Notes: generated by a model from the sequence alone, not told the origin. 64,000 nt of DNA from Candidatus Eremiobacteria bacterium (GCA_963737065.1 CAVTRC010000002.1:160001-224000); one strand, 5' to 3'; positions 13,780-51,925 are shown, numbered from the stretch's first letter. Numbers and translations are program-made.

Positions 13780-14469
13780 ATGCCTGCCCCGACGATTGTG
13801 GTCGCCGAAGACGACGTGGCGATCCGCGAGCTGCTCACGCACCATTTGGAACGCGAAGGATTTTCCGTTGTGGCGGTCGGCGACGGACAAACGGCGTTGC
13901 GTACGGCGCGGCGAGCCGCGGATCTCGTCATCCTCGACATCGGGCTGCCGGGCATTGACGGATACGACATCGCGCGAACATTGCGTCGCGAGGAGCGCGC
14001 AATTCCGATCGTCATGTTGACGGCGCGCGTCGACGAGATCGACCGCGTCGTCGGCTTCGAACTGGGTGCAGACGACTACGTCTGCAAACCCTTCTCGCCG
14101 CGTGAAGTGATCGCACGCGTGCGCGCCGTGTTGCGACGCAGCGGCACGACCGTCGACGCGCCACCGGCCTTGTTGCAGTTCGGCCGATTGGAGATCGACG
14201 AAGCCGCGCGCGAAGCTCGCGTCGATGGGGTCGACGTGCGACTCAAACCGCGTGAATTTGCGCTGTTGCTCGAATTGGCGAACAATGTCGGCATCGCGCT
14301 CTCACGCGAACGGTTACTGGAGCGCGTGTGGGGTTTCGATTTCGACGGCGACGAGCGTACGGTGGACGTGCATGTTCGGCGGCTGCGCGCAAAGATCGAA
14401 GAAGAAGCGACGCTTCCGCCGATGGTGCAAACCATCCACGGATTCGGCTATAAGTTCGTGCGCGCGTAA
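13780..14469 (+). CDS. OmpR/PhoB-family response regulator
   Basis: VVAEDD, ILDIGLP, GADDYVCKPFS and winged-helix [14 protein letters not shown]...GFGYKF. Confidence 0.95.
   Translation: MPAPTIVVAEDDVAIRELLTHHLEREGFSVVAVGDGQTALRTARRAADLVILDIGLPGIDGYDIARTLRREERAIPIVMLTARVDEIDRVVGFELGADDYVCKPFSPREVIARVRAVLRRSGTTVDAPPALLQFGRLEIDEAAREARVDGVDVRLKPREFALLLELANNVGIALSRERLLERVWGFDFDGDERTVDVHVRRLRAKIEEEATLPPMVQTIHGFGYKFVRA
14242..14469 (+). repeat. Left copy of a ~228 bp direct repeat (regulator 3' end)
   Basis: Matches 40714-40941. Manual count gives 21 mismatches over 14251-14466 versus 40723-40938. Confidence 0.95.
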
Positions 14470-14485
14470 ATGCAACACCATACGA

Positions 14486-14590
14486 GCCTTTGCGTCGGCT
14501 GCCGGCCGCACATGCGTGACGCAGACGTGCTGGCGCACGATGGCGCAAGCGACTGGCTTGCGGCGGCGGTGCTCTCACCGACGCGCGCGA
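14486..14590 (+). pseudogene. Remnant of the histidine kinase 5' region
   Basis: AFASAAGR/MRDADVLAHDGASDWLAAAVLSPTRA versus VFAAAADRIMRDGDILGHDRGSDWFAVAMLSPTRA in the intact kinase (~41116-41221). Confidence 0.85.
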
Positions 14591-14735
14591 ATCGTCGAGG
14601 TTTCCGTCAACCAGCACCATCGGTTTGTTTGCGTGCGCGGCAACGTAGCGAGATACATTCCATGGAACCTTCCTCTCGACGCCTCCTAAATCAACCGGCG
14701 CCCGAACATGTCGAGAGTTCAGTTTCAATCGGGTT

Positions 14736-14870
14736 TCATAAAGGTCCGTTGCCCACGTGTTCTTCCGTGTCTTCAACGCCGTCGTCTCTAATGTCGTCGG
14801 GAAAGATTGGATCGTCGCTGGCTTCATCGGGTCCCGGTTCCGACGGATGAATTGTCTGGTTTCGCTCCAT
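14736..14870 (-). CDS. Possible 44 aa acidic small protein
   Basis: MERNQTIHPSEPGPDEASDDPIFPDDIRDDGVEDTEEHVGNGPL*, read by eye, below the ORF-track cutoff. Confidence 0.35.
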   Translation of the reverse strand: MERNQTIHPSEPGPDEASDDPIFPDDIRDDGVEDTEEHVGNGPL

Positions 14871-14962
14871 ATCGCACTCAGTCTAACGCACGCCGAACGC
14901 TATATCTGCGCGGTTTTAGACAAAGAGCGCGGCGGCCGGTTCGTACGGCAGAAAGCTAATTC

Positions 14963-15751
14963 TTAACGCGCTGTCCCGGGCTCTTTGGAGTTGTCTGCGC
15001 CGCGAAGGAAGCCGCTGAATTGATCCCGCGCGACGGCATAGCATTCACAGGCCGTTTCTTCGAGACCCGATCGATCTTGAATCGTAATGCATCCGTGAGC
15101 GTAGTTAATATATCCAGCGCGCTGCAGCGCGGCGAGGGCTATCGTGACTCCGGAACGGCGGCTGCCCAACATCATCGCGAGATATTCGTGTGTCAACAAA
15201 ATCTCGTCGCGGCCAACACGATCGTGGGACAGTAGCAGCCAGCGGGCGCAGCGTTCGTACACGCTATGTAACCGATTGCAACCCGTAAGTTGCCCGAGAA
15301 AATTCACATAGGCCTGTAAATAGCGATTCAGTAACGCACTAAAGCGTGTGTCGGTCACTCTCAGGTGGTGAAAATGCTCCGCCGGCATCTTGATGGCGCG
15401 CCCAGGGACTTGACAATAGCTGTCATTTGCCGTCGTTGTACCGTCCATGAGCAATGGTATGCCGGAAGTTCCCTCGCGTCCGATCGTGCCGACTTCTATC
15501 TCCCCGCCCGCCTCCATGCGCGTTACGACAGAGAGCACGCAATCGATGGGGAAAAACACCTCGGCGATCGGTTCTCCGGCGCGGTAGATCGCAAAGCGAG
15601 CCGGCATTTCCAGCAGATCACCGACGCCCGCGATTTCCGCAATCCCGCGATCGCTCAGGTTCCGAAGGATTGCGTTGCCTTGGATTTCTTCGAGGGTGAG
15701 CTTGCTTCGTCGCGCGGGTAATCCGGCGTGCTTCCGGCCTTTCGTTGACAC
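14963..15751 (-). CDS. Crp/Fnr-family transcriptional regulator
   Basis: cNMP-binding FPIDCVLSV..EVGTIGREG, CNRLHSVYERCARWLL and HTH LTHEYLAMMLGSRRSGVT. Confidence 0.9.
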   Translation of the reverse strand: MSTKGRKHAGLPARRSKLTLEEIQGNAILRNLSDRGIAEIAGVGDLLEMPARFAIYRAGEPIAEVFFPIDCVLSVVTRMEAGGEIEVGTIGREGTSGIPLLMDGTTTANDSYCQVPGRAIKMPAEHFHHLRVTDTRFSALLNRYLQAYVNFLGQLTGCNRLHSVYERCARWLLLSHDRVGRDEILLTHEYLAMMLGSRRSGVTIALAALQRAGYINYAHGCITIQDRSGLEETACECYAVARDQFSGFLRGADNSKEPGTAR

Positions 15752-16041
15752 GAGAAATTACGCTCCTACAGGTTTCTAAAACTGCTTATTGGGCGCGCAC
15801 GACCTTTCCTTGCCTAAAACCGCACAGAGATATTCTCCATCCCGCAGGTACAATGTATCTCGCACAGCGGGATGGGAGCTTACATTTGCAATTATCAACT
15901 CGGGGAAGGACGTGCATCATTCCGCTGCGTGGCGCATCCGATATTGTTCCGCCGCGGAGCGCATTGGGCCGCCTAGGCAGCGGCATCAACGATTACGGCG
16001 CGGCGTCCCACAAAGCCGTGCACCTCGTTGACTCTATAGAG

Positions 16042-16371
16042 ATGATGCACGGTCGTGTGCATCGTGCCGTACACGAGAGCAGCTCGCAGATATGTTTGCG
16101 CCTCTCCGGTGACTTCGATATCTATAATAAGCGCGAACTCGCCGCGACGCTTGCGTCCTACGTAGCGTATCCGGCCATCACGATCGATCTCGCGCAGACC
16201 CGATTTATCGACGGCGGCATTATCGGCGTGTTTGCCCGCTTTGCAACCCTACGTCGCGAGCTTGGCGGTGCACAATTGCGGATCGTCAACTGCAACACAT
16301 TTATGTTTAAGCTCTTTTCCATTTGCCGGCTCGACACGCTCTTCTGCATTGAGGAACAACGCCACGCGTAA
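16042..16371 (+). CDS. STAS-domain protein (anti-sigma antagonist-like)
   Basis: LRLSGDFDIY..IDLAQTRFIDGGIIG..KLFSICRLDTLF. The usual DS phospho-Ser is replaced by Gly. Confidence 0.75.
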   Translation: MMHGRVHRAVHESSSQICLRLSGDFDIYNKRELAATLASYVAYPAITIDLAQTRFIDGGIIGVFARFATLRRELGGAQLRIVNCNTFMFKLFSICRLDTLFCIEEQRHA

Positions 16372-16457
16372 CGCTAAACCTTTCGGTCTTCGAAGGTTTG
16401 CTTCGCTCCGATCCGCTTCATTGCCGGATCAATTCCATTACAACGAGGTGAACCAAC

Positions 16458-18244
16458 GTGACGACTAGTGATTTTCTCCTCGAACGTCTGGTCGAATGGG
16501 GGTTCTATCGCATTTACGGTTATCCCGGCGACGGCATCAACGGCATCATGGGTGCGTTCGACCGCATCGGCGACAAACTGCAATTCATTCAGGTTCGCCA
16601 TGAAGAGATGGCGGCGTTCATGGCGTGCGCGCATGCGAAGTTTACCGGCGAGATCGGCATTTGCCTCGCAACGTCCGGCCCGGGCGCGATTCATCTGCTC
16701 AACGGTCTTTACGACGCAAAGATGGATCACGTTCCGGTGGTCGCCATCGTCGGACAAGCGGCGACAACCGCGCTAGGCGGATCGTACCAGCAAGAAGTCG
16801 ATCTGCAAGTTCTGCTGCAAGACGTCACGGAATACGTTACACGGTTTCGAGCCCGGCGGCGATGCGCCACGTCGTCGACCGCGCCGTGCGCACGGCAAAG
16901 GGCATGCGCGCCGTCACCTGCGTCATCGTGCCGAAAGACGTTCAGGAGAGCCTGCGGTTCCCGAGCCGCCGCGCGCGCACAACAACATGAGCAGCAGCGT
17001 GGGATACTGCGCGCCCGTCGTCGTTCCGGCGCAGCGAGATCTGCAGCGCGCGGCGGATATCCTCAACGCCGGCGAGCGCGTCGCGATGATGGTCGGGCAA
17101 GGCGCCGCCAATGCGACGGACGAGGTGCTCGCGGTTGCCGATCGCTTGGGGGCGGGCATCGCAAAAGCGCTGCTCGGGAAAGACGTCGTTCCCGACGATT
17201 TGCCATACGTGACGGGCACGCTCGGGCTTGCTCGGAACGCGCCCGAGCTACGACATGATGAACGAATGCGACACGCTGTTGATGGTCGGCACGTGCTATC
17301 CGTACTCGGAGTTTTTGCCGAAGCAAGGCCAGGCTCGCGGCGTGCAGATCGACATCGATCCGCGCAACGTCGGCTTGCGTTTTCCGACCGAGGTGAACTT
17401 GATCGGCGACAGCCGCGATACGCTTGCCGCGCTGCTGCCGTTGCTCAAGCCGAAAACTGACACCGCGTGGCGCGAGAAGATCGAGAAGGGCCAGAAGGGC
17501 TGGCATGCCGACGAAGAGGCGCGCTGCCACGTCAAGGGCGATTTGATCAATCCGCAGCTGGTATTTTGGGAGCTGAACGAGCGCCTACCCGACAAGGCGA
17601 TTCTTACCGGCGACGCGGGCACGCCGACGAACTGGTTTGCGCGCAACATTCAGATGCGGCGCGGCATGAAATCTTCGCTCTCGGGAGGCCTGGCGACGAT
17701 GGGCTCGGCGGTTCCGTATGCGATCGCCGCGAAGTTCGCCTATCCGGATCGAGTCGTCATCGCGTGCGCCGGCGACGGCGCGATGCAGATGAACGGCAAC
17801 GCGGAGTTGCTCACGGTCAAAAAGTACTGGAAAACGTGGTCCGATCCGCGGCTGATCTTCCTCGTGCTGAACAATTCGGATCTCAACCAAGTGACCTGGG
17901 AGATGCGCGTCGAGTCGGGCAATCCGAAATACGAAGCCTCGCAAGATCTGCCGGTCTTCAACTATGCGCAGTACGCCGAATCGCTCGGTTTGCGCGGCAT
18001 TCGCGTCGAGCGATCCGAGGACATCGCGCCGGCGTGGGATCGCGCGCTTGCGTCCGACCGGCCGGTGGTTTTCGATGCGGTGGTCGATCCGAACATCTCG
18101 CAGTTGCCGCCGCACATCACGCTTGAAGAGGCGCACAACCTCTTCTCGGCGATGCGGAAGGGCGATCCCGACGAGGGCGGCGTGATCAAGGAGAGCATCA
18201 AGAGCGTGCTCGCCGGCATTCTGCCGCACCGCGGAGAGAACTAA
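16458..18244 (+). pseudogene. Thiamine pyrophosphate enzyme (pyruvate oxidase/PoxB-like), frameshifted
   Basis: GYPGDGING, RHEEMAAFMA, ATSGPGAIHLLNGLYDA and GDGAMQMNG motifs split over several frames. Confidence 0.85.
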
Positions 18245-18246
18245 AG

Positions 18247-19359
18247 GTGGCTCTGACCGCCGTGCGCGTGCAATGCCCGATCGAGCGATCGACGTGCGCG
18301 CGTATCGCATCCCGACGAAGTCGCCGGAATCGGATGGGACGCTCGAATGGGATGCGACGACGCTGGTGTACGTCGAAGTGCAGGCCGGCGGACAGACCGG
18401 CATCGGATACACGTATGCCGACGTTGCGACCGCGAAACTCGTCGAAACGATGTTGCGCAATGCCTGTTGGGCAAAGACGCGATGCAATCGGCGCGCGCTG
18501 GGACGACATGGGCAACGTTACGCGAATCTCGGACGCGACGGCATCACGTCGATGGCGATTTCGGCGGTCGACGTCGCGCTGTGGGATCTGAAAGGCAAGA
18601 TGCTGGACGGCCGGTCTGCGTGTTGCTTGGTGCGGCGCGCAAACGCGTGCCGATCTACGGCAGCGGCGGCTTCACGTCGTACACCGCGCGAACATTTGTG
18701 CGCGCAACTGCATGGCTGGGTGACCGACGGCATCCCGCGCGTGAAAATGAAGGTCGGACGCGAACCGGACGAGGACCCAAGCGCGTCGCAGCTGCGCGAG
18801 GGGCAATCGGCGACGACGCGGAACTTTTTGTCGATGCCAACGGCGCGTATTCGCGTAAAGCAGGCGCTCGCGCTGGCGCGGCGTTTCGCGGAACGGCGGG
18901 TGACGTGGTTCGAGGAGCCGGTGTATCGCGAAGATTACGAAGGTACGCGACTGGTTCGCGACGGCGCGCCGGCGAGGCATGGACATCTCGATCGGTGAGT
19001 ACGGGTACGGGCTGTACGGTTTGCGCGATGCTCGACGCGCGATGCATTGACGTATTGCAAGCCGACGCGACGCGCTGCGGCGGCTTTAGCGGCCTGCTGG
19101 CGGTTGATGGGCTTGTGCCAGACGAAGATGATGCCGCTTTCGACGCATTGCGCACCGTATGTTCATTTGCACGCTGCGCTCGCGTGCAAGCAGATTCGCC
19201 ACATGGAGTATTTCTTCGATCACGTGCGCATCGAGAAGATGCTTTTCGATGGCGCAGTCGCGCCCGCGGGCGGCCACGCTTACCGCGCATGTGAGTCGCC
19301 CGGCCGTCGGACTGGAATTCAAGCGCGCTGACGCCGCAACCGCTATCTTATCTAGGTGA
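18247..19359 (+). pseudogene. Mandelate racemase/enolase-superfamily protein, multiply frameshifted
   Basis: PESDGTLEWD, AISAVDVALWDLK, YGSGGFTSY, KMKVGR, FVDANGAY, WFEEP and EYFFDHVRIE pieces in alternating frames. Confidence 0.85.
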
Positions 19360-19363
19360 GCGT

Positions 19364-22300
19364 ATGATCAAGATTCTGACGGCACTCGAAACGCACGCGC
19401 ATTCGGAGCGGACACGATCCGGCGCCCACGCAGCGTCCCGATGCGGTAAACGAAACCGACGTCGACGTTGCGGCCGCTGGAACGCGCTTTGCGCGCTAGC
19501 GTTCGAGGCGAAGTACGCTTCGATGACGGTAGCCGGGCGTTGTATTCGACCGATGCTTCGAACTACCGCCAGGTGCCCGTCGCCGTTGTGATTCCGCATG
19601 ACGCCGACGATGCTGAAGCGGCCGTGCGCCGCTTGCCGAACGTACAGTGCTCCCGATCTTTGCACGAGGTGGCGGCACGGATTTGGCGGGCAGCACGTGC
19701 AATGCCGCCGTCGTTTTGGATTTCTCCAAATACATGAACCGCGTCGTAGAGATCGATTGGGAAGCGAAAACGCGCGCGCGTTCAGCCTGGCTGCGTTCTC
19801 GACGATCTGCGTGACGCGGCCGAAAAGCGCACGCTAACGTTTGGGCCCGATCCCGCAACGCACAACCGCAACACGCTCGGCGGAATGATCGGCAACAACT
19901 CGTGCGGGATGCACGCGCAGATGGCCGGCAAAGTGGAAGAAAACACCGAAGAGCTCGAGATTCTTACCTACGATGGCCTGCGCATGCGCGTCGGGCCGAC
20001 GACCGATGAAGAGCTCGACGCGATCATCGCCGAGGGCGGCCGGCGTGGCGAAATCTATGCCAAGCTTCGCGACCTTCGGGATCGCTACGCCGATCAAATC
20101 CGCGCACGATTTCCCGCACATCCCGCGCCTGGTTTCAGGCTATCCGCTGCAGCAACTATTGCCCGAAAACGGTTTCAATGTTGCTCGAGCGCTCGTCGGC
20201 ACCGAAAATACGTGCGTGACGGTAGTCGAAGCAAAGGTGCGGCTCGTGCACAGTCCGCCGTTTCGCACGATGGTCGTCTTCGGATTTTCGGATATCGCAA
20301 CTGCTGCCGACCACGTTCCCTTCTGCAACGCGCACGGACCAATCGCGCTCGAAGGTCTTGATACAAGCATGTTCATGTACATGCATGACAAAGGGATGTC
20401 GACCAACGGGCGTGCGATGTTTCCTGACGGCAACGCGTGGCTCATCGTTGAGTTCGGCGCAGATACCGAGCAAGGAGCGAACGACAAAGCAGACGGACTG
20501 ATGGCGGCATTTAAAGCGCGTGAAATCGTGCCGAGCATGAAGCGCTTCGATGACGAACATGAGGAGCAACTGCTCTGGGAGATTCGCGAGTCCGGACTCG
20601 GCTCGACCTCGAAGATTCCGAACCTTCCGGATTTCTATCCCGGTTGGGAAGACTCGGCGGTTGGTCCCGACAAGCTCGGTCGCTTACATACGCGACTTCC
20701 AAAAGCTGATGTCGCAATATGGTTACCATGCTTCGCTCTACGGGCATTTCGGGCAAGGCTGCTTGCATTGCAGCATCGATTTCGATCTATATACCACCGA
20801 GGGAATTGCAAAGTACCGCAAGTTCGTCACCGAAGCGGCGCACATTTGCGTGAAATACGGCGGCTCGTTATCGGGCGAGCATGGCGACGGTCAAGCTCGC
20901 GGCGAGCTGCTGCCGATCATGTTCGGCGACGACTTGGTCAAAGCGTTTTGTGAATTCAAAGCAATCTGGGATCCGCAGAACAAAATGAATCCCGGTAAGG
21001 TCGTGCACCCCTATAAGCTCGATGAGAATTTGCGCTGGGGGACACACTATGCGCCGTGGGAGCCGCAAACGCACTTTGGATTCGTCGAGGACAACGGCAG
21101 CTTTACCTATGCTGCAAACCGCTGCGTCGGCACCGGAAAGTGCCGCAAGCACGATTCGGCGTGATGTGTCCGAGTTACATGGCAACGCGCGAGGAGATGC
21201 ACTCAACGCGCGGGCGCGCGCGATTGCTGTTCGAGATGCTTGAGGGCAATCCACTCACAGAACGGTTGGCAGGGATGAAACCGTCAAAGAGGCGCTGGAT
21301 CTCTGCCTCGCCTGCAAAGGCTGCAAGGGCGAATGTCCGGTCAAGTCGATATTGCGACCTACAAGGCAGAATTTCTTTCGCATTACTACGAAGGCCGCGC
21401 GCCGCCCAATCGCGGCGTACGCGTTCGGGTTAATGTACTGGTGGGCGGAAGCCGCGGCGCTCGCGCCGTCCTTGGTCAATTTTTTCACGCAAACGCCCGG
21501 GCTGCGCGATGTCGCAAAGGCGGTAGCACGGTCGCGCCGCAGCGGCGCATCCCGCTGTTTGCGCCGCAGACGTTCCGCTCATGGTTTGCCGCGCGTGCCG
21601 CCCCGCAACGTCGGAAAGCCGGACGTCATCCTGTGGCCTGACACATGGAACAATAATTTTCATCCCACGACAGCGCAGGCCGCCGTGGAAGTGCTCGAGG
21701 ATGCTGGGTTTCACGTGACCATTCCGAAGGTTGCGCTGTGCTGTGGCCGGCCGCTTTACGACTACGGGATGCTCGACTTGGCCAAAACGATGTTGCACGA
21801 GATCGTCGCTGCGCTCAAGCCGCAGATCGACGCGGGGACCTGTATCGTAGGTCTCGAGCCCAGCTGTGTGTCGGTCTTCCGCGATGAGATGCCGAATCTG
21901 CTGCACGGCGACGAGGACGCCAATCGCTTTAAGAAACAAACGTTGCTGCTCAGCGAGTTTCTCGAGCACTACGCGCCGCACTACCAGCCGCCCAAGCTGA
22001 AGCGCAAGGTTCTCGCGCAGGCGCACTGTCATCAGCGGTCCGTCCTCGATGTGTCCGCTGAAGAACATTTACTCAAAAAGCTCGGCGTTGAGTATTCGTT
22101 TCCCGACTCCGGCTGTTGTGGGATGTGCGGCGCGTTTGGTTTTGAAACCGGCGAGCACTACAAAGTTTCGATGGCAGTCGGCGAGCGCAGCTTGCTGCCC
22201 GCCGTACGTGCTGCTTCCGCCGGCACCGTTATCGTCGCGACCGGTTTCAGTTGTCGCGAGCAGATCGCGCAGACGACAAATCGCCAGGCGTTGCACCCGG

Positions 22301-22491
22301 CGCAGCTCGTCAAAATGGCGCTGGACGACCGCAACAGCGAGCGTGACGATGTGTTTCCTGAACTGCGGTACATGGCCGATCCGGCGGTTGAACGGCGCAA
22401 ACTCATGCAGCGCGCTGGGGTGGCCATCGCGATCGTGAGTGGCTTTGTGGGTGCGATCGGCATCTTCACGTTCCGCAAGCGAACGCAGTGA
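19364..22491 (+). pseudogene. FAD-binding plus Fe-S oxidoreductase (GlcD/GlcF, YdiJ-like), multiply frameshifted
   Basis: YSTDASNYRQ, GGMIGNNSCG, SLSGEHGDG, CVGTGKC, CCGRPLYD, HCHQ and GCCGMCG motifs across frames. Confidence 0.85.
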
Positions 22492-22521
22492 AACTCACCG
22501 ATAAAGTCGCGATTATCACCG
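22488..22521 (+). pseudogene. 5' stub of a short-chain dehydrogenase
   Basis: MKLTDKVAIIT coupled by GTGA to the previous gene, with similarity lost just before the TGxxxGxG motif. Confidence 0.55.
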
Positions 22522-22653
22522 CAATAGCCCGGGCACTCGCTTTCGAATTCGCCGTGCGCTTCTTTGTCGAACTGCGCCTTATCGAGCGCCGCAAGCTTGG
22601 CTTTGAGATGGTCAAGTGGGTACGCGAGAGGAGCTTTGTCGAAGCGTCCCGAT

Positions 22654-22758
22654 CTCCCCCCCCCTCTTCCCCCACCCCCCTCTCCCGTACTCTGCTCCGC
22701 CACACCCACCCCCCGCCCACCCCCCCCCGCGACCTACCGGCTTCCCCCGCCCCCTGCC
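22654..22758. repeat. C-rich low-complexity tract
   Basis: Runs of 4-9 C over ~100 bp, unlike any other part of the window. Confidence 0.9.
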
Positions 22759-22820
22759 GTGGGGAAAGGCTACGGTGGCGAGAACGAAGATGACGAATAG
22801 TTCGATCTGTTACCGTACAT

Positions 22821-23561: not shown

Positions 23562-23843
23562 ATTGATTACTATACGTGAGTCTGCGATCCAGTTTTGCCT
23601 AAAAAGCGCACAGATACGCATGCCTTTAGACGGTTACACTGTATCGACAGGAGCTTAGATCGTTGAAACGCGATTTTTGCCTCATTTCGAGTATGCATAG
23701 TTGCTCGATCGAGCAACCCTATGCGACCGGCCTGATGGCACAACGGCTAATCGCGACGCCGCTAAGACCGGCGTCGCGAAGACTAACGTGTTTTGCGGTC
23801 GCGATGTGCCTTGCGTCGCGACTGAAGCGGGGAGCACGCCATC

Positions 23844-24140: not shown

Positions 24141-24154
24141 CGTAAGGCGCTCGT

Positions 24155-26722: not shown

Positions 26723-26727
26723 TACAC

Positions 26728-28482: not shown

Positions 28483-28513
28483 GAACTCATTTCCATCGGA
28501 CATCGAGCACTGA

Positions 28514-31419: not shown

Positions 31420-31745
31420 GCGGCGTAACGTTCGGCTCGTCCGTTCGTTTATGGCGGCACGGCTGCTCACTCGGCCACGGAACGGCGCGGGAGGAAGAAC
31501 TCGCACGACGCATTCGCACAGCCGCGATCGAGTCGCTCGTCAACTCCGCACCGTCTCCAAGAGCGCCCCCCCTGGTGGCATTGCCACCGCCGGCTCATTT
31601 CCGACGCCGCGCTCCTCCTACATGCTTTCCGGTGGAACACTTGCACGACGGCAAACTTCGGCCGCACATTCCTACGGCGAGGCGTTCGTACGACGGCGGA
31701 GGGGAAACTCCGCTATGACGTACTTTCGTTCGCTGACATTATGGA

Positions 31746-32676
31746 GTGAATGATCGATATGGCAGCACCAGACATCACGGGCGGATCGATCCACAAGAAT
31801 CCAAGGAAGCACGAGCCGTTGCAGAAAGCGTGCAGAAACTCGTGCATAAAGCGTTCGCCAGTGCGGGTCCAAGCGGTCAAAAGCTCAAGAACTTCCTGAA
31901 CGGCACCTGGCTGGGCGATCCACTGCACGTCACCCTCACCGATGTTCCGATCGGCGCCTGGACGACGGGGCTTATTTTCGATGCGTTCCAGTGGGTCAGC
32001 GGCCGCGATGACTTTGCCGGCGCCGCCGATGCTGCAGTGACAATCGGGATCGCGGGCGCACTCTGTGCAGCTGTTTCGGGCGTAACCGACTGGCAGGATG
32101 CGGATGCCCCAGCTCGCCGAATTGGGATGACGCACGGTATTTTGAACTTGAGCGCAACAGCGTTGTTCGGCGCTTCACTGATTTCACGCAAGCGCAAGTC
32201 ACGGAGCATGACGCGGGTACTGCGTGCACTGGGCTATGGCTTCATAACTACCGCCGCGCATCTGGGCGGCGAGATGATCTACACGCACCGCGTGGGTGTT
32301 GATCGTACCGCCGGCCAAGTGTTTCCGGAAGACTTTGTGTCCGTGTTGCCGCATCGGAACTGGCAGAATCACAGCCCAAGCGCGTCGAGCACGATGGTGT
32401 TCCGATCCTTTTGGTACGGCGTGAAACGAAGATCTTTGCGCTGGCTGAAACTTGCTCGCATTTCAGCGGGCCTCTTTCGGAAGGCAAACTAGTGGGAGAC
32501 AGCATTCAGTGCCCATGGCACCGATCGCGATTCGCACTGGACGACGGACGGGTGCTCGATGGGCCGGCGTGCACCGCCAACCGTGCCTTGAAACGCGCGT
32601 ACGCAACGGGCAGATTGAAGTGCGCAAACCACTGAACAAGTCGGCTCCGCCGACACCGTCAGCTGTCGGCACATAA
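31746..32676 (+). CDS. DUF2231 plus Rieske [2Fe-2S] protein, frameshifted
   Basis: LNGTWLGDPLH..LTDVPIGAW, HLGG, then CSHFSGPL and CPWH in another frame. Confidence 0.82.
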
Positions 32677-32683
32677 GTATGGC

Positions 32684-33702
32684 ATGAGAATTCTCACGGG
32701 GGTAAAGCCCACGGGCAAGCCACACCTGGGAAACTATCTCGGTGCGATACGACCTGCGTTGGGTCTGGCGAAGAATGGGGCCATGCTCTTCATCGCAAAC
32801 TATCATGCTTTGACTACGGTGACTGACGCAGCCCAATTACGTCGCCTTACCTACGATGTTGCTGCATCATGGCTCGCTGCGGGGCTGGATCCCGAACGCG
32901 TGGTATTCTATCGCCAATCCGACGTGCGCGAAACGTTCGAGCTGTTCTGGCTGCTTTGCTGCACGACGCCGAAGGGAATGTTGAATCGTGCGCACGCCTA
33001 CAAAGCGATCGTCGATGAAAATTTGGCCCTCGGACGGGCTCCGGATGCCGCCGTTAACATGGGGATTTACAGCTACCCAGTCCTGATGGCGCAGACATGC
33101 TGCTCTTCGATGCGAACTTCGTTCCCGTAGGGGCGGACGAGAGACAACACGTCGAGATGGCGCGTGACGTCGCCGAACACTTCAACCGCTCGTTTGGCCC
33201 GGCCTTGACTATTCCCGAACTGCTCTTGAGCGGCGACGGCCAACCCTTACTCGGCACTGACGGTCGCAAGATGAGCAAGTCGTACGATAATGCAATCTCT
33301 CTATTTGCGTCGAGCGATGCGTTGCGAAAGTTGCTGCGTTCCTATAAGACCGACAGCACCGCTCCCCGTGCACCGAAGGATCCAGACGCGAATGGACTAT
33401 TTAGAATGTACGCCAGCTTTGTTGATGCTGATAAAGCAGCCGCCGTGCGCAAAGCGCTCCTATCAGGTGACATGATGTGGGACGAGCTGAAGGGCCTCAC
33501 GTTTGAGGCAGTCGATGGAGAGCTTTCTCCGTTGCGGCAGCGCTACGGCGAAATACGGAATGATGTGGCAGCACTGGAACGCATTCTTTCTCATGGGGGC
33601 GAAAAGGCGCGCGCAATTGCACGAAAAACCATGCAACGAGTGCGCGACGCGGTAGGCGTCGGTCACAGCCCCAGCATCGGCAAAGTCAAGGCCTTACACT
33701 GA
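32684..33702 (+). CDS. trpS: Tryptophanyl-tRNA synthetase, frameshift near 33090
   Basis: LTGVKPTGKPHLGNY, YRQSDV, YPVLMA, VPVG..QHVE and KMSKS motifs. Confidence 0.9.
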
Positions 33703-33766
33703 AGCGCGCCTGCGCGGGATCACTCTCGTAGTGATCGTGGTCGGCTTTTCGTGCGCCAAGCACGCC

Positions 33767-34693
33767 TTACATTGATCGCCGCATTGTCGCGCGGAACATG
33801 TCTTTGTCGGCGATGGAATAGTAGAGGTAGATGGCATCGCGTTCCTCGAGCGAGGACGCTGCAAAAGCGATGTCAGTGTCGGTCGTGTTGCGCGGAGGAG
33901 GCGGCGTCATGAGCGGTTCTTCGCAACGCGCAACGATGCGGGTATAGGTTTCATCGAAAATGGCCCAGCCAATTCGCCATTTGGCTTCTCGCGTTGCGCC
34001 GTTATAGAACATGACGGGGCGTCGCGGATCCGTCGTAAGCACGGGTCCCGTGCTCAGGTGCCACGAATCCCAGCGTCCCGGCCGCGAATTGAAAAACGGG
34101 TGGAGGATCCGCCATGGACCATGAACGGCGGGGGCGGATGCGATTCCGATTTTCGATGCGCCGGCAGATGCGTACTCGAAAAAGAGTCGCCAGGTTCCAT
34201 CCGCCACTCGGACAATCGTTGCTTCTTTCGGATTTTCGCACTGTGGCCTCGAAGAAAGCGCGATTCCCCGCTTTTTCAGGTGTTCAACGTCGGGGCCGGC
34301 GGCGAGGAAAAGCTGCCCACGCTTGAATGTCTGGTTCCAGCCGGTGTAATAGACGTAGTATGTTCCGTCAACTATGGCGAGTGTCGGGTCTTCGCATCCG
34401 TCTTTGTCGTCGTCGCCGGGGCCCGGCGCAATCACCGGCTGGTCACCCATGAGGAAATGCAAACCATCGCGGGAGCGACCGTAGTAGATCCGAGCGACCT
34501 TCTCGGCTGCAATCGTGGAGCGATTGACGGCGCGCAGTAAGAGTCCATAATGCGGCTTTTGCTGCCACACGAACGGACTGAGGGCGTACATCTCGGCGAG
34601 CGGACTCTTCCGCTCCAGCTCTAGCGATGTGATTTCGGCGACCGCGAAACCAGGTGTCTTAGCCATTACCGATTCGTCCATTGCCGATCCCAC
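33767..34693 (-). CDS. Five-bladed beta-propeller glycosidase (GH130/GH43-like)
   Basis: GCEDPT, YYVYYTG, MFYNG, WRIG and YLYYSIAD motifs. Confidence 0.75.
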   Translation of the reverse strand: MGSAMDESVMAKTPGFAVAEITSLELERKSPLAEMYALSPFVWQQKPHYGLLLRAVNRSTIAAEKVARIYYGRSRDGLHFLMGDQPVIAPGPGDDDKDGCEDPTLAIVDGTYYVYYTGWNQTFKRGQLFLAAGPDVEHLKKRGIALSSRPQCENPKEATIVRVADGTWRLFFEYASAGASKIGIASAPAVHGPWRILHPFFNSRPGRWDSWHLSTGPVLTTDPRRPVMFYNGATREAKWRIGWAIFDETYTRIVARCEEPLMTPPPPRNTTDTDIAFAASSLEERDAIYLYYSIADKDMFRATMRRSM

Positions 34694-34726
34694 ACGTTGC
34701 GCTCCTCTCGGACTGTGGCTCTCGTA

Positions 34727-35952
34727 TCACATCACGAATGTGCTGACGAGGAAGACTCCGGCAGCAATGCTTACGACAGCCGTCGTCGCCCAGCCCGCGG
34801 CTTTGAGCCATGGCGAAAAGGGCGTCCCCTGCATCACTTCTTTGTCGCCTGCTGCAAGTAGCATGAAGACGAGGGTGATCGGCGTGGCGATGCCGCCGGC
34901 GATTGAACTAATGAAGAGCAGCCGAATCGGCGATACGCCGGCGAAAGCCACGGCACAGCCGATCGCGGCGGCGAGCAACATCGTGGCATAAAATCCGCGC
35001 GCCTGAAAGAACTTCGCATCCAGTTGACCGACCCAGCGGAACATCTCGGCGACCACGTAGCCGGAGGTCGCGAGCAAGACCGGGAGGGCCAGGAGTGCCG
35101 AACCGAGCAGTCCGATCCCAAAGAACGCCGAAGCGAACCGGCCGGCGAAGGGGAAAAGCGCGGATGCGGCCTGCTGCGCCGTTTCGACCGTCCGGTGGTG
35201 GACGCCCAAGGTTGCACCCGTCGCGATGACGATGAACCAAAACGTAATTCCGGCCGCGATCGCTCCGAGGGTTGAATCGATCTGAACTAAACCCAGCCGA
35301 CGAGCGGAGGCCGTTCCTCGGCGATCTCGATCCCTTGCCAGACATAGGCATAGGCGGTCAACGTCGTGGCTAAGAGCGCGATACCGCCGGCCGTATACGC
35401 CGGGGACGGTTCGAAATGGGGAACGAGGGAATCGAGGAGTATGCGGTGCCAGTCCGGATGAGCGAAGAGCGCGGCTGCGATGTACGCAAGAAAGGCGAGC
35501 GGAATGTAGATGAGGATGGACTGGATGCGCGCATAATCCCGAGATGAGCAGTGCGACGCTGAACCGGCCAACGGCAGGATCCACCACTGGTAAGGAAGAT
35601 GCGTCAACAACTGGAGCGCCGCGCCGCCCCCTTCGAGATCGGCCGAAAATGTCAGAACGTTCACCACGAGCACTGCTAGGAGCACGACGGCGGCGCTTAC
35701 AGTTCCGTAACGCTCTCGCACGATATCCTCGAGGCCACTGCCTTTGGCAACCGTGCCGACCTGCGAACTGATGGCTTGGACGACGGCGAGCATGGGGATC
35801 ACGAGCACGACCAGCCAGCCCAGTCCGTAGACCGTCGTCGACCCGATAACGGCCAGCGTCGCGACGGTGGTTGGATCATTGTCGGACGCGGCCGAAATGA
35901 TCCCCGGAACCATCGAGCGGAAGAGGCCGAACTTGCCCGCCGCGGGAAGCAT
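34727..35952 (-). pseudogene. NRAMP-family divalent metal transporter, frameshifted
   Basis: PGIISAASDNDPTT, ADLEGG, TTLTAY and VETAQQAASALFP motifs split across frames. Confidence 0.8.
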
Positions 35953-36124
35953 CAGACGCGCTTTCTTCTCACATACACCAGCTTCATCGTCGCAAAATTG
36001 CGCCAGGCACCGATCGGTGGCGGTGCTCGAAACGCCTGGCCGGTATGTTATCGAAATGCCGAAGGTCGTCCGTACCCGCGCAAAAGCGGCCTTTCAGCGC
36101 GCTGGCAGAACGCGAGGCGACCGA

Positions 36125-36341
36125 TGGGTGTGGCGGGTGCATCATGGGAGAAGATCCCGGCAGCTCCGTGGTCAACAGCTATCTGCAGATGCGGGATTTC
36201 GAGAACGTCTTTGTCATTGGTGCGTCCGCCTTTCCGCAGAACGCCGGCTTCAATCCGACGTGCACCGTAGGCGCACTTTCGTACCGTGCAGCGGACGGCA
36301 TTATCAATCACTACATGAAGAAACCCGGGCCTCTGGTCTAA
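36125..36341 (+). pseudogene. C-terminal fragment of a GMC oxidoreductase (gluconate 2-dehydrogenase-like)
   Basis: GGCIMGEDPGSSVVNSYLQ..NVFVIGASAFPQNAGFNPT.TVGAL with no N-terminal part. Confidence 0.8.
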
Positions 36342-36379
36342 TGCATTACAATGTCTGGCCTCGCTCGGCTTTCGCGTAA

Positions 36380-37169
36380 GCCTGCGCACCACCATTACGC
36401 CCGTTGAGCCCTATCGCCTCGACTTGACGGCCCAGGGCGCTGCGCCGGGTAAGCAGCAACATCGTCGACGTCCTCGCGCGCAAAGGAACATACCTGCGTG
36501 GGTTGCGCGGCGAGCACTGCGTCAATATCATCGAAGTCCAACAGGAAGCGGACGGAAGTCTCGTGGTGCGGATTAGCGGGCGCGGCGCCGGCGTGCAGCT
36601 GGAAACTGTGAGAACGTTATTGGGGACGGGCGTGGACCTTCGTCGTTGGTACCGCCGGGTGGCGCGCTACCCGTGGCTCGCGCGCTCGCGCGGGATCTGC
36701 GCGGCGTGAAGCCGCCACGCTATCCCGACCTGTGGGAGGCGCTGTGCAACGGGATCGTGTTCCAGCAACTGAGCATTGCAGCGATCAAGATCTGTTGAGC
36801 CTAGGGCTGAGCCGTCAAAAGGTGACATACTTGAAAAATGCCGCTGCAGCGGTGAAGTCGGGTGCGATTACCATCTGCCCGCATTGCGCCGCTTCCGATG
36901 GCGGAGGCACTTATCGAATTGCAATCGGTCAATGGCATGGTCATTGGAGCGCCGCGAACATTCTCTTGCGGGGCTTCGGGCGTCTCGATGTTTTCCCGAT
37001 GGGCGACACAGGGGTCGCACAGAACATCAAACGTCTATCCGGCGATCCGCACGTCCGTCTGGACGATGTCTTTCTTGCACTTGGCGATATGCAAGGGATG
37101 CTCTATTTTCATCTCCTGCTCGGTAAATTGCGCAGTCGGCCGGCTTTCTCATCGGCGGCTTCGAATTGA
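36380..37169 (+). pseudogene. AlkA-type DNA-3-methyladenine glycosylase, frameshifted and internally deleted
   Basis: PYRLDLT, KPPRYPDLWEAL..IVFQQLS, GLSRQK and WSAANILLRGFGRLDVFPMGD pieces. Confidence 0.75.
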
Positions 37170-37274
37170 ATGAAATGGCGCGCGAGCGCTGCGCCGCTGG
37201 TGGTCTGTCGCGCTGCTTAGCGGGAGTGGGACATTTCACATGTTTACGATGATTCGCTGCCGTCGACAGCCACA

Positions 37275-37538
37275 TTGGAGAGAGTTTTGAAACTCGTAAC
37301 TGCAATAAATGCCCAAGACCTGGAGCATGCCACGCTGATTGCCGAATCGAACGAATTCGCGATCTATGACGTCGGCAATGACACCTACGCGCTCGTCCAT
37401 CGACATGCAGCCGTTGAATGGCAGGCGATCACGATCTCCGGCGACGGTCTCTTCCGGGTGCTCGAAATATTAGCGCAGGCTACCCGCACCTTGTACCGAG
37501 ACGTCGCATGCGATCTTTCAAGGCAGCGCCGTTCCTAG
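37275..37538 (+). CDS. Hypothetical protein
   Basis: Clean 87 aa ORF with protein-like composition, no recognised motif. Confidence 0.5.
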   Translation: MERVLKLVTAINAQDLEHATLIAESNEFAIYDVGNDTYALVHRHAAVEWQAITISGDGLFRVLEILAQATRTLYRDVACDLSRQRRS

Positions 37539-37685
37539 GCGAAACTGCGCTAGACCGTAAGACGCTAACGGAAAGCGGCACCGGAGCCGACGTAACCGAC
37601 GGCTCGCACGCGGCGGGCATTGCACGGATATACGAAGCTGATACAATGCCGACATCGAGTCGATGAATGAAGGAAGCGCAGTACG

Positions 37686-37904
37686 GTGACGAACCGGCGA
37701 TTTCGCAAGGGCGATCACGTGAGTTGGAATTCGGAAGCCGGCCGCGTCTCCGGCAGGATCGTTAAAGTGATCACATCGGAAATCCAATTCAAAGGTTACA
37801 CGGTTCATGCGAGCGACGATGAACCGCAATACGAGATTAAAAGTGATGAGACCGATCACATTGCGATGCACAAAGGCTCGGCATTGACGAGACTCGCTGA
37901 CTGA
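37686..37904 (+). CDS. DUF2945 (HVA1 Tudor-like) small protein
   Basis: GDHVSWNSEAG..HASDDEPQYEIKSDETDHIAMHKGSAL. Confidence 0.85.
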   Translation: MTNRRFRKGDHVSWNSEAGRVSGRIVKVITSEIQFKGYTVHASDDEPQYEIKSDETDHIAMHKGSALTRLAD

Positions 37905-38105
37905 CGCCGGTACTCCAGCACGGCGCAGGCGCCGAAGTCTAGCGCGATCGACCTCGACGATCCCATTGCGCTTCGTAGAGCGCCACGGCCATGCACCGTT
38001 GATGCAACCTCGTCGACGGTGCGCCCCATGAAGCCGGAAAAACGATCTTGATTGCGGAGTGTGCGACCCAGCCGCAGCGCATCTGCATGATGATCGGCGT
38101 CGGCG

Positions 38106-38852
38106 CTAATTTTGGAGTTTGATGTTCGAGAAATCGATCTGGCGCACGAGCGTTTCGCCTTCATATCCGAGAACGCGTATTGGAAGATTGCTCGTCGTTG
38201 AAATATCGACAATTTCGCGCGTCAAAGCGGTGTCGCTGCCGGAGGAGTTCGGAATAAGCGTAACGGCGTCAGTCGCGACACCGTCGATTACGGGACCCGT
38301 ACCCGCGGAGATTGTCCCCGGTGTATCGTGTGCGTGAGCAAGAATGGCAGCAAAGCTTAATTCATCGATGGATGACCCGCGGATAGTCGTGACGGCCGGA
38401 TCATGTAGTGCGAAGGTTTTCTTAAATAGCGCCGTCAAGCCGGAACCGCGGTGCGCGACCACGGTGTTACCGCCGCTCCACACGGCCGTCACGCCCGAAT
38501 TTGGGCCTTTGTCGTAGTGTACCGTGGCATTCGCCGGCTTGTGAAACGTATACTCGAATACCGCATTCTGCACCGTTGTGCCCTTCCGCTCGAAAATGGT
38601 GACCGTCGCGCTGTAGCCCGTGATGTTCGTCCACGCGCGGTCGAATGCGGCCAATGCGGCTGGGATCGCCGAAGGCGACGGACGTACTGGCGCCACGGAC
38701 GGTGATGGGCTTCCCGTTATCTGCGTCTGCGCGGGCGCCGATGTGATCAGCGAAATGATCGTTGTGCAAGCGACGATAACTATGACGATCGTCATTCTTG
38801 TCAACGAACTGCCTTGCATCGAAGGTTCAGAAACCGCATGCTTACCTTTCAC
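38106..38852 (-). CDS. Secreted protein, LolA/lipoprotein-carrier-like fold suspected
   Basis: Signal peptide, YSATV..FHKP and C-terminal LPIRV..YEG..VRQIDFSNIK. Confidence 0.55.
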   Translation of the reverse strand: MKGKHAVSEPSMQGSSLTRMTIVIVIVACTTIISLITSAPAQTQITGSPSPSVAPVRPSPSAIPAALAAFDRAWTNITGYSATVTIFERKGTTVQNAVFEYTFHKPANATVHYDKGPNSGVTAVWSGGNTVVAHRGSGLTALFKKTFALHDPAVTTIRGSSIDELSFAAILAHAHDTPGTISAGTGPVIDGVATDAVTLIPNSSGSDTALTREIVDISTTSNLPIRVLGYEGETLVRQIDFSNIKLQN

Positions 38853-39085
38853 GACGTCTTTATTTACCAGGCTTTATAGCCTCCATTTTATAATTTCTGT
38901 CCAGTCAGATGAAAACATCGTCTCGATTAGGGACGATTAAGGAAACCACTTGGTGATCGGTTGCCGATTCGTGAAGCGAACTGACAAGGCGCACGCGCCG
39001 TATTCGTAAATAGCAAGCAGCGCGATAAGGAATGAACGCAGAGCGGTGAGCGGGAACACGCGCTCAGAGAAGTGCAACACTTGCC

Positions 39086-40207
39086 GTGATCGAACGACCA
39101 CTTCGTAGCCTTATTTTTGTTGGGTTGGCAATCGGCATCGCGGTGCTCGCGTGGATCGTTGGCGCGGTCATCGAACACGTGAAAAATCTTTTCACGACGA
39201 TTATCATCGCGATCCTGTTTGCATATGTGATCTACCCGGCGGTTCGCCGGCTTAGTACGCGGATGCCGCGGCCGCTTGCCGTCATCGTCGTTTACATTTT
39301 AGCCTTTGCAGCGATCGGCTTCACGGCCGCTTACTTGGCCCCGGCGATCGCAACCGAAGCGATCGAACTTGCGCGGGCGATGCCCGCTGCATTACGCAGC
39401 GTGGAAAGCCAGGTTGCGCATCCGGGAACGAGCCAGTTCTTGGCGCACTTCCCACTCGCAGTCCGCACATTTATCGTTCAGAACGCCGCTCGCTTTGAAG
39501 TAATTGCGACCACGTTTGCGGGAAACGTCGGCTTGCACGCCCTCGACGTTCTGCACGGGACGGCGACGCTCGTCGTCGACACTTTTGTGATGCTGGCGCT
39601 CGCATTTTTCTTCATCATCGAAGCGGACCAGATACGGGCGACTTTTCTCCGGCTAGTTTCGCGCGATGCCCGGCCGGCAGCAACGAGCTTCATTGACGAG
39701 GTAGATCGGGTGATCAGCGGATTCGTCAGGGGCCAGGTTCTTCTCGCAATCGTCATCGGAATCGTTGTAACGCTGGTCTTATTGATCACGGGAGTACGCT
39801 ACGCGACGTTGCTCGGTGTATTTGCCGGCTTCGCAAGCGTCGTTCCAATCGTCGGCGAATTCATCGGAGCTGTTCCTACGTTCCTTGTTGCGCTTTTTAC
39901 TGTCGGACCGATTAAAGCACTGATCGTTCTGGCGCTGTTCATCGTCGTGTTCGAGGTGCAGGGCCGTGTTCTAGCACCAATCATCGTCGGCAAGAGCGTT
40001 GGCGTGTCCCCGCTGGTCATTTTCGTTTCGATCCTCGTCGGTGCTGAGGCGTTCGGCGTTGTCGGAATGATCGTGGCAGTACCGGTTGCTGGAATAATTC
40101 GCGTGGCGCTCGACCGGCTAGCTCCCCCCGAAGCGAGCGCGGAAATCACATCGGTCGAACCACGTGACGTTGCTGTTCGCCACGATACGAGGTCAGATAA
40201 ACTTTAG
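39086..40207 (+). CDS. AI-2E family (PerM/TqsA) transporter
   Basis: AYVIYP, GFVRGQ, VPIVG, LAPIIVGKSVGVSP and GVVGMIVAVP motifs. Confidence 0.9.
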   Translation: MIERPLRSLIFVGLAIGIAVLAWIVGAVIEHVKNLFTTIIIAILFAYVIYPAVRRLSTRMPRPLAVIVVYILAFAAIGFTAAYLAPAIATEAIELARAMPAALRSVESQVAHPGTSQFLAHFPLAVRTFIVQNAARFEVIATTFAGNVGLHALDVLHGTATLVVDTFVMLALAFFFIIEADQIRATFLRLVSRDARPAATSFIDEVDRVISGFVRGQVLLAIVIGIVVTLVLLITGVRYATLLGVFAGFASVVPIVGEFIGAVPTFLVALFTVGPIKALIVLALFIVVFEVQGRVLAPIIVGKSVGVSPLVIFVSILVGAEAFGVVGMIVAVPVAGIIRVALDRLAPPEASAEITSVEPRDVAVRHDTRSDKL

Positions 40208-40713
40208 CACTATACGGTTCCATCGCCATGGAACGCGAGCCACGGCGATTGCAACGGCGTAGTCGACCGCAGACGCGGGTTGCGTAAAACCGGATCTGCT
40301 TGCTCTTGTGACCTAGAGCGCGACCGGAATCTTCACCCCAGCCCGTCCGTGACTCTGTGCGTCGCTACGATTAACGTTGAACGGGGTGATAGCCCCGATT
40401 TTACGCGCGGCGCGCCTGTGGAGTTCAACAACACTATTCTGAGATCGTCGCGCGCAATAGCGACGCGCTAGCGCGACTCTCGGCCGCTGACGGACGGTCG
40501 GGTAAGGCCACCGAGAGTTCATCCGCGTCTCATCGCCGTTTGTTTGTGGCACTGTTCGTTGACGAAGGAACAGTAATGGGACCGTTCAGCTTGATTAGCG
40601 GCGCACCGAAACACGTACCGCCTGAAATCCGTCGTATACGGCGCATTCGGTGCCTTGAAGCCTCGGGGCGGGCGTTTTTCAAAAGGCTGGTATGCCTGGC
40701 TCACAGCGTGGAT

Positions 40714-40941
40714 CTAAAGCCACGTGAATTTGCGCTGTTGCTCGAACTGGCGAACAATGTCGGCATCGCGCTTTCACGCGAACGGTTGCTCGAACGCGTG
40801 TGGGGTTTTGATTTCGACGGCGACGAACGCACGGTGGACGTGCACGTTCGGCGACTGCGCGCGAAGATCGAAGAGGAAGCGAAGATTCCCGCGATGGTAC
40901 AAACGATCCACGGTTTCGGCTACAAGTTCGTGCGCGGGTGA
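40714..40941 (+). pseudogene. Displaced 3' third of the OmpR regulator (right direct repeat)
   Basis: LKPREF...GFGYKFVRG* with no receiver domain, abutting the intact kinase. Confidence 0.92.
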
Positions 40942-40945
40942 ATGC

Positions 40946-51924: not shown

Positions 51925-51925
51925 T

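Follow-up and report, generated by a model that had tools for sequence, protein, structure and literature searches.

How does the 3' end of a response regulator gene come to stand twice in one locus, 26.5 kb apart, with an open histidine kinase frame behind the second, headless copy only? The question is raised by a stretch of 64,000 nucleotides (nt) from a Candidatus Eremiobacteria bacterium (G000:C2:160001-224000; hereafter the window), part of a 3.08-Mb genome of 60% G+C in two contigs that we call G000. An earlier, sequence-only reading had taken the locus for an integrase-less island inserted into an OmpR-type regulator gene whose 3' end it regenerates. What stands of that description is that about 26 kb of accessory DNA (14591..40706) separates a regenerated from a displaced 3' end. 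We favour a different history, to which we assign a probability of roughly 0.55: the two copies would belong to an old array of modules, each a regulator tail plus a kinase gene, that arose by duplication or displacement of part of the operon and was reshaped by homologous recombination, and whose cargo is decaying.

The regulator occupies an open reading frame (ORF) on the plus strand at 13552..14469 with Pfam matches to Response_reg (1.2e-27) and Trans_reg_C (2.7e-25); its likely start is ATG 13777, though the ORF is listed from TTG 13552. Orthologues are present in three of the related genomes (G001, G003 and G006), and the 3' part of the gene from about 14080 constitutes the left module copy. 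A repeat search of the window returned a direct repeat of 239 nt at 88% (14235-14473 and 40707-40945), and blastn against the whole genome recovered 232 nt at 89.2% (E 6.7e-82) in only two copies, as the earlier claim of a doubled regulator end had it. The left copy (14235..14473, plus strand) comprises regulator residues 228-305, the stop codon and 4 nt, while the right copy (40707..40945, plus strand) begins at residue 228 and matches Trans_reg_C only. Over the shared codons, Nei-Gojobori counting gave 18.0 synonymous differences in 54.0 sites and 4.0 non-synonymous differences in 165.0 sites (synonymous divergence dS 0.44, non-synonymous divergence dN 0.025, ratio omega 0.056), and the alignment shows four residue changes, T/K, L/I, P/A and A/G, exactly those on which the sequence-only reading had based its view that both copies evolved as coding alleles. 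The similarity between the two copies, 89.3%, is the highest of all pairs in the module-copy matrix, which suggests some gene conversion inside the G000 genome.

The two copies differ in what follows them. Behind the left copy lies a decayed kinase stub (14469..14590, plus strand) that corresponds to kinase nt ~163-282, the first ~160 nt having gone; positions 14511-14588 match 41143-41220 at 73% with an offset of 160 nt in the repeat search, 27 amino acids (aa) agree at 67% with the kinase in tblastn, and the stub matches the kinases of G002, G003, G005 and G006 at 70-79%. The statement that the left copy completes the regulator and precedes a kinase remnant thus holds. Behind the right copy follows a cytoplasmic histidine kinase (40946..42079, plus strand; HisKA and HATPase_c) with 377 open codons and no internal stop, which is the sole full copy of that kinase in G000 and sits 26.5 kb from the regulator. 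In the relatives the regulator stop and the kinase start overlap in GTGA, whereas in G000 a one-base difference (window 40937-40948) puts the GTG out of frame and the first in-frame kinase start is TTG 40946; the earlier picture of a headless copy joined to an intact kinase was right about the missing head and the open frame, but the start overlap is lost. With receiver and winged helix in the regulator and HisKA/HATPase_c in the kinase, the Pfam matches place the pair among OmpR/PhoB-family two-component systems.

Relatives were found by a kinase search in 41 genomes, and their loci (in G001, G002, G003, G005 and G006) were compared by blastn and tblastn on fetched regions; nothing stated here depends on two unpublished genomes of that search, G014 and G036. 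In G006, the local outgroup, the regulator is followed by the kinase and then directly by the homologue of window 45146. G001 likewise has the two genes side by side, with an rve fragment and a Tad pilus cluster next, so that the empty regulator-kinase locus that the sequence-only reading had proposed to look for exists in both of these same-genus genomes, and the accessory DNA of G000 is absent between the two genes in either. What immediately follows the kinase in G001 is a Tad/Flp pilus cluster of 18 kb together with a fragment of an rve transposase (G001:C2:437165-455309), and the locus is therefore a hot-spot for other insertions even without a module array.

The remaining relatives carry arrays. 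In G003 the regulator and a full kinase are followed by insertion sequence (IS) elements, a headless tail (y), island-like DNA, a partial kinase, a second pair of Crp/Fnr-type regulator and STAS-domain genes (Crp-STAS), an AI-2E transporter, a headless tail (x) fused to a partial kinase, and the right flank, which makes one full pair, two tails and two partial kinases. The DNA behind headless copy y is 89% identical to window 14727-18326 and continues with further island pieces. On a single contig, G002 combines three full kinases with three headless tails, and a fourth copy of a junction motif (J, see below) has only ~10 nt of tail behind it; between the modules of G002 lie a TonB-receptor-like gene, a BTAD protein, a desaturase, an AI-2E transporter, DUF2867, Kup and others. 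One headless tail with a kinase is found on a short contig of G005, G000 itself has one headless pair and the stub, and metagenome contigs carry further headless copies; G002, G003, G005 and these contigs have up to four such headless modules in tandem. A public contig recorded as Vulcanimicrobiota carries the same module. The DNA between modules differs from one module to the next, and most of it is not duplicated. An AI-2E transporter stands upstream of a headless module in G000, G002 and G003. The left junction of the island is common to G000 and G003, and the right junction to G000, G002 and G003.

Two of these loci deserve separate mention. The Crp-STAS pair occurs twice in G003, each time behind a kinase remnant (G003:C1:1634544-1636192 and 1643910-1647503), a visible case of what appears to be segmental duplication. 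The copy that is closer to G000 in nucleotides (89%) reaches only 68-72% at the protein level and, because of that low value, is probably a pseudogene itself. On one metagenome contig (L048, 3947 nt) two headless tails lie 2.5 kb apart with no kinase detected after either, so that units can be very small.

The relatives also fix the point at which the copies were cut. All six headless copies found by regulator homology (three in G002, two in G003 and one in G005) start at residue 177, in receiver helix alpha5, one BLAST alignment starting at 185, and in all six the same ~25-nt motif, J, stands immediately upstream of the tail, as it does in further copies on metagenome contigs. Across loci L022-L025, L018-L019, L047 and L048, J consists of the run CCGCTCTCAAAAG and a few bases on either side, and in the regulator frame it reads PAALKS(G/V)D. 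Beyond ~29 nt upstream the flanks of the headless copies are unrelated, except for the orthologous pair G002_b/G003_x; G002_a and G002_c have about 90 nt of upstream flank in common. That all these copies share one cut and one motif fits a single breakpoint, as segmental duplication predicts. The earlier advice to look for other cargo at the same codon succeeded in part: other cargo does lie behind the gene in G002, G003 and G005, but the codon is 177. The right copy of G000 is cut at residue 228, not 177, and lacks J, for which the G000 genome contains no match anywhere even with 4 mismatches allowed; the relatives' cut at 177 speaks against a discrete attachment-site element inserted in G000 at its own codon. 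The place that in G002 is occupied by a DUF2867 gene, J and the first 153 nt of the tail is taken in G000 by a unique 500-nt spacer (40208..40706) without similarity to the relatives' loci or the rest of the G000 genome and without a Pfam match in six frames.

Where J came from was sought in the single-copy loci of G001 and G006, which contain no match at up to 4 mismatches. Of 17 matches in species-representative genomes, 12 lie in unrelated phyla; regulator sequence follows in not one of these 12 cases, and matches outside the genus are therefore chance. One J 20-mer in an unrelated genome encodes part of what we take to be an HU/IHF-type protein (ALKSGDKVSLVGFGTF), and by this resemblance J may be a captured coding fragment. 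The headless copies have no conserved start codon; an ATG, GTG or TTG lies 8-28 codons upstream in most, at variable positions, and one copy has an in-frame TGA. By consensus scan there are no promoter-like sites at either junction, and terminator-like sites there are within chance (3 against 1.2 expected and 2 against 0.9 expected). Rfam gave 0 matches on 97.6 kb of the relatives' loci, and J and its surroundings are therefore no known RNA family.

The left flank (14 kb) and the right flank (6.6 kb) each yield the tree ((G000,G003),(G001,G002)),G006 with support of 97-100, and array-bearing genomes stand on both sides of the first split. Since arrays occur on both sides and both junctions are shared, the array appears to predate G000, G001, G002 and G003, and a collapse, probably a secondary one, is the simplest explanation for the empty site in G001. 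The same evidence speaks against a recent event: the left junction recurs in G003, the right one in G002 and G003, and by the flank trees the array goes back beyond the four-species split. Divergence agrees with a module older than the species, dS between module copies being 0.7-2.1 for tails and 0.7-2.1 for kinases against 0.51-1.04 for core genes of G000 and G003. The protein tree of ten kinase copies is a star inside the genus with G006 outside and support for none of its seven inner branches, so that module orthology across genomes cannot be assigned. Kinase copies have omega 0.09-0.25, all full kinases keep the H-box and G-boxes, and conservation is strongest in the DHp domain (mean identity 88.8%). 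We also considered the kinase paralogues as diversified sensors and rejected the idea, as the N-terminal domain, at 78% mean identity, is not the most variable part.

We propose that the two repeat copies of G000 are the first and last members of such an array, whose unit would be a 5'-truncated regulator tail (helix alpha5, linker and winged helix) with its histidine kinase. The array would have arisen at the regulator-kinase operon after G006 had split off and before the radiation of G000, G001, G002 and G003, most likely through a partial duplication with one breakpoint in the regulator at codon ~177; this breakpoint would have made a single junction, J, that was then copied along with the module. 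Accessory DNA may have built up between the modules, part of it by horizontal acquisition, and RecA-type recombination between the direct module repeats, together with ordinary deletions, could account for expansion, collapse and reshuffling. From a G003-like state, G000 might have been reached in two events. In the first, the full regulator would have recombined with the downstream y-type module, which is headless in G003, removing the adjacent full kinase and leaving regulator, kinase stub and then the Crp gene; in the second, a later deletion would have taken J and 51 codons of the last module. This history comes close to an outcome that the sequence-only reading had named as its own refutation, an old operon duplication with gradual infill, and it resembles the state found in the relatives, but part of the cargo looks horizontal. 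Nor does the repeat look like a simple scar, for the repeated unit is the module of regulator tail and kinase, and it is under purifying selection even where headless.

Several observations fit an old duplicated array poorly. Headless tails compared with one another have omega 0.014-0.071 at dS of about 1 or more, similar to the 0.015-0.020 of full regulators within the genus, and they are 92-97% identical in aa. The pair G002_b/G003_x is included here, at omega 0.048, and because its two members have a common upstream flank they were already headless when the species separated. Decay would be expected of copies that were only scars of duplication, and the headless copies must therefore be translated or otherwise kept. 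At third codon positions the major-allele frequency is 0.92 in J against 0.67 downstream, a figure inflated by the collection of copies with the J pattern, and a conserved site beside the cut would also be expected of an attachment-site arm; neither this conservation nor the strong purifying selection on headless tails is well explained by duplication. The ages are rough, dS being near saturation, and the star-shaped kinase tree fits duplication in place and import of modules from close relatives alike. Finally, some island segments of G000 and G003 are 89-91% identical in nucleotides (dS 0.13-0.5) compared with 81-83% for the left core flank (dS 0.5-1.0), and given this lower divergence and an island enzyme nearest to copies from other genera, horizontal movement of cargo seems likely.

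These points lead to an alternative that we consider unlikely but the first to be weighed, namely that modules came from outside. By homologous recombination of the kind called 'C-terminal displacement', a module and its cargo would enter from a related strain or species through the alpha5/winged-helix region of the resident regulator, pushing the resident tail and kinase downstream; units would loop out between modules and re-enter in a Campbell-like manner without a recombinase. The cargo does differ between modules, the thiamine diphosphate (ThDP)-dependent enzyme of the island is nearest to other genera and some segments of the island have diverged less than the core flank has, all of which this route would produce, and coding-type substitutions in every copy are expected if each had served in an expressed regulator before its displacement. 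The architecture also resembles orphan cdiA-CT/cdiI arrays, whose orphans, in the portion of the source that treats them, mostly lack initiation signals (PMC3150448). On the other side, one cut point and one junction motif are better accounted for by a single founding junction, except if J travels as part of whole modules; the array is common to three species by descent; and G002_b/G003_x, headless since before a species split, still shows omega 0.048.

Doubtful, and to our minds less probable than import of modules, is a site-specific origin, the main interpretation of the sequence-only reading, in which integrative elements would target codon ~177, their own tail and kinase forming the regenerating arm and J the other, with a recombinase that acts in trans, has been lost or is of an unrecognised kind. 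Such elements would account for the identical cut, for the ~25-nt motif at the junction in six of six homology-found copies and more in metagenome contigs, for a J conserved beyond coding needs (in copies collected with the J pattern) and for the empty sites of G001 and G006, and there is a precedent in e14, whose integration into icd leaves the 3' fragment icdC, as far as the relevant part of the source reports (PMC13626634). Descent from one junction, however, explains the shared codon 177 and J of the relatives equally well, the array is old and was inherited in common, and G001, being sister to the array-bearing G002, may have become empty secondarily. The G000 copy is moreover cut at residue 228 in a genome without J.

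The recombinases themselves are missing from the locus. No tyrosine or serine recombinase stood at any locus searched (G000, G001, G002, G003, G005): a six-frame profile search with Phage_integrase (PF00589) gave 12 matches in these five genomes, none at the locus, and Resolvase (PF00239) and Recombinase (PF07508) matched nothing in G000, G001, G002 and G005 and only once in G003, on a small contig. In G002, where J occurs four times, PF00589 matches once genome-wide and there is no serine recombinase. Among 114 six-frame stop-to-stop ORFs of the unannotated island parts, none matched a recombinase or transposase family (E <= 0.01); the scan included 14470-14960 and 40210-40713, where the sequence-only reading had thought that integrase remnants might lie. 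Neither these 114 ORFs nor 52 island ORFs nor 112 ORFs of the relatives' loci include a phage, conjugation or mobilisation gene, and the mobile-element genes among the 112 are IS transposases only, three in G003 and one fragment in G001. The sequence-only reading had reported no integrase, tRNA or transposase at the locus; the first two are indeed absent from it, but a transposase relic of 34 codons is present (22503-22604). As regards J as a recombination site, the dif consensus has two inverted 11-nt arms, and J, judged by eye, shows no dif-like inverted repeat of the kind used by integrative mobile elements exploiting Xer (IMEX).

A further possibility, speculative and in our estimate just as improbable as site-specific insertion, is that the headless modules are a maintained reserve of output-domain and kinase cassettes for one signalling pathway and not scars at all. 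They might be recombined into the expressed regulator at the alpha5/J boundary, by analogy with Rhs/CdiA orphans or silent pilin copies, or they might be expressed as receiver-less, constitutively DNA-binding regulators with extra kinases. If so, J would be a functional site for recombination or expression, and this would explain why copies that were headless by the time the species diverged show omega of 0.01-0.07.

An assembly artefact, whether a two-strain chimera or a repeat that was collapsed or misjoined, is hardly credible: the genome is apparently metagenome-derived and in two contigs and its broken genes are confined to the island, but an assembler should not be misled by copies so short and so diverged (89% over ~232 nt), the junctions recur in independent assemblies (left in G003, right in G002 and G003), the indels of the ThDP enzyme lie outside homopolymer runs, and G000 has no other kinase or J copy that could have been collapsed. 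Contigs from three soil-metagenome sequencing runs of one study (the best run containing 17% of the words), compared with 13000-32999, included none that spanned a junction; they are short, of low depth and mostly 90-95% alike, and so come from relatives. The runs listed for the stretch include no RNA run.

The accessory DNA trapped between the modules is decaying. Its G+C content is unremarkable. It shares segments 14727-18326, 22772-23702, 33786-38362 and 38104-40190 with G003 and segment 38118-40153 with G002. At least seven of its genes are split or frameshifted, and no split ORF was seen among the flanking ORFs scanned; between G000 and G003 island genes have omega 0.12-0.47 against 0.02-0.11 for core genes, at dS of 0.13-0.74, somewhat below core, and their constraint is relaxed. 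From the left, a Crp/Fnr-type regulator (14963..15751, minus strand; Pfam) forms an open frame, to which one of the G003 copies, two in number, is 91% identical in aa, and a STAS-domain gene (15745..16371, plus strand; Pfam) follows. The ThDP-dependent enzyme (16458..18244, plus strand) is a pseudogene with split Pfam domains and, by reference to its intact G003 orthologue of 595 aa, single-base indels at 16837, 16949 and 17223; none of the three lies in a homopolymer run, and a read-through search met three TGA stops inside the match. An enolase-superfamily (MR_MLE) gene (18273..19304, plus strand) is probably broken, its ORF ending at 18998 while similarity to a paralogue on contig C1 continues to 19304. 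An FAD-linked oxidase/CCG-domain (GlcD/GlcF-like) pseudogene (19468..22455, plus strand) lies in pieces in all three forward frames: a C1 paralogue of 1027 aa matches it in four pieces in frames 2, 3, 1 and 2 (tblastn), and the FAD_binding_4 and FAD-oxidase_C domains are split.

This whole ThDP-enzyme/enolase-type/GlcDF-like oxidase cluster occurs twice in G000 at 71.5% nt identity, broken in the island (16485-22319) and intact at C1:359695-365474. The closest matches to the island ThDP enzyme (85% and 78% aa) belong to other genera of the family, the genus-wide paralogue reaching only 69%, and part of the cargo was therefore probably acquired horizontally. The cluster is followed by the IS transposase relic (22503..22604, minus strand; 34 codons, HTH_29/rve_3 type). 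The IS from which the relic derives encodes an HTH_29/rve_3 transposase of 345 aa and is present in G000 in four full copies (C1:1137-2156, C1:68689-69711, C1:2419550-2420581 and C2:575737-576759) and two partial ones; the relic lies at the right edge of a 4.4-kb segment (18326-22772) that is absent from G003.

Further right stand an NAD_binding_1 oxidoreductase (22821..23621, minus strand) with 90.5-92.7% aa identity to G003 and a frameshifted flavoprotein of succinate dehydrogenase/fumarate reductase type (24550..26722, plus strand), its FAD_binding_2 and Succ_DH_flav_C domains lying in different frames (ORFs 24550-26226 and 25913-26722). Open frames on the plus strand encode an Fe-S subunit (26728-27552), an NHL-repeat protein (27552-28670) and an ETF-QO-like protein (28514-30175), together spanning 26728..30175. 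A hemerythrin-domain gene (30890..31416, plus strand) is split over two frames, and a second, divergent class-I (Trp/Tyr-type) tRNA synthetase-like gene (32684..33702, plus strand) is frameshifted into two ORFs in different frames and only 35% identical to the C1 copy. Because the synthetase and the ThDP-enolase-oxidase cluster have C1 counterparts, the broken island genes are spare copies. An Nramp transporter (34727..35952, minus strand) is frameshifted at about 35302, and an AI-2E family transporter (39086..40207, plus strand), the one also found upstream of the headless module in G002 and G003, is open; further families in the island are DUF488, DUF2231, GH130, an HhH-GPD fragment and Hva1_TUDOR.

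Elsewhere in the window, a flagellar run (FliF, FliG, FliH, FliI, FliJ, then a FliK-like protein, FlgD and FlgE) occupies 48984-63064 and is interrupted at 55405-58415 by anthranilate synthase I/II and DAHP synthase; a second FliK-like gene lies at 8279-9919. At 980-3811 on the minus strand a membrane H+-pyrophosphatase of 702 aa stands beside a soluble inorganic pyrophosphatase.

What the array means depends on its headless copies. If they are functional, as the substitution pattern suggests, the locus would offer a little-studied phylum a recombinase-free way to build, trade and prune signalling modules and accessory DNA; if they are not, it would be an ordinary old duplication hot-spot. Where an integrase is lacking, a regenerated 3' end is no sure sign of a mobile element. 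To our knowledge, arrays of displaced, headless gene ends with partner genes are known from polymorphic toxins and from a small number of prophage attachment sites. We found no description of such an array for a two-component system in a search that did not cover the literature on response-regulator genes as island sites, and we make no claim that none is in print. Like ordinary OmpR/PhoB systems, the locus has a regulator of receiver and Trans_reg_C and a kinase of HisKA and HATPase_c with a conserved H-box; unlike them, it has extra copies wholly without a receiver domain, and in G000 the full kinase lies 26.5 kb away.

Integrative and conjugative elements (ICE) and cis-mobilizable elements (CIME) that accrete at the 3' end of fda in Streptococcus thermophilus likewise form tandem units bounded by attachment-site-like copies of a gene 3' end, some of them without an integrase or other recombinase. 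That accretion, however, depends on the integrase of a related element acting on short attachment cores, and none was found in the genomes studied here. The e14 prophage in icd, in connection with which Hill et al. 1989 is reportedly cited, offers a second comparison. In the part of the source that deals with E. coli K-12 (PMC13626634), the 3' end of a coding gene stands at both ends of the inserted DNA, the joined copy keeping the gene functional and the displaced icdC fragment being headless and distinguished mostly by silent changes; once the insert is lost, gene and fragment are joined again. The same account gives e14 its own integrase and excision after SOS induction, whereas no recombinase was found at our locus. 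Here, moreover, the duplicated unit reaches into the kinase, is multi-copy in relatives and is older than speciation.

A third comparison is with the orphan arrays attributed to 'C-terminal displacement', with which Jackson et al. 2009 is said to be connected. For orphan cdiA-CT/cdiI and Rhs-CT/immunity arrays, the portion of Poole et al. 2011 (PMC3150448) that concerns them describes a full gene followed by tandem 5'-truncated 3' copies, each with a partner gene, which start in a conserved coding segment, mostly lack clear initiation signals and vary among close relatives, as at our locus; recombination with the main gene can put a downstream module in the expressed position. The differences lie in content and degree. 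The modules described here pair a DNA-binding tail with a histidine kinase, not a toxin tip with an immunity gene; their copies are conserved rather than polymorphic (tails 92-97% aa identity, DHp 89% on average); tens of kb of unrelated cargo lie between them; and one junction motif is present in all. The array is thus one that works like those of the CdiA/Rhs type while not being a member of that family.

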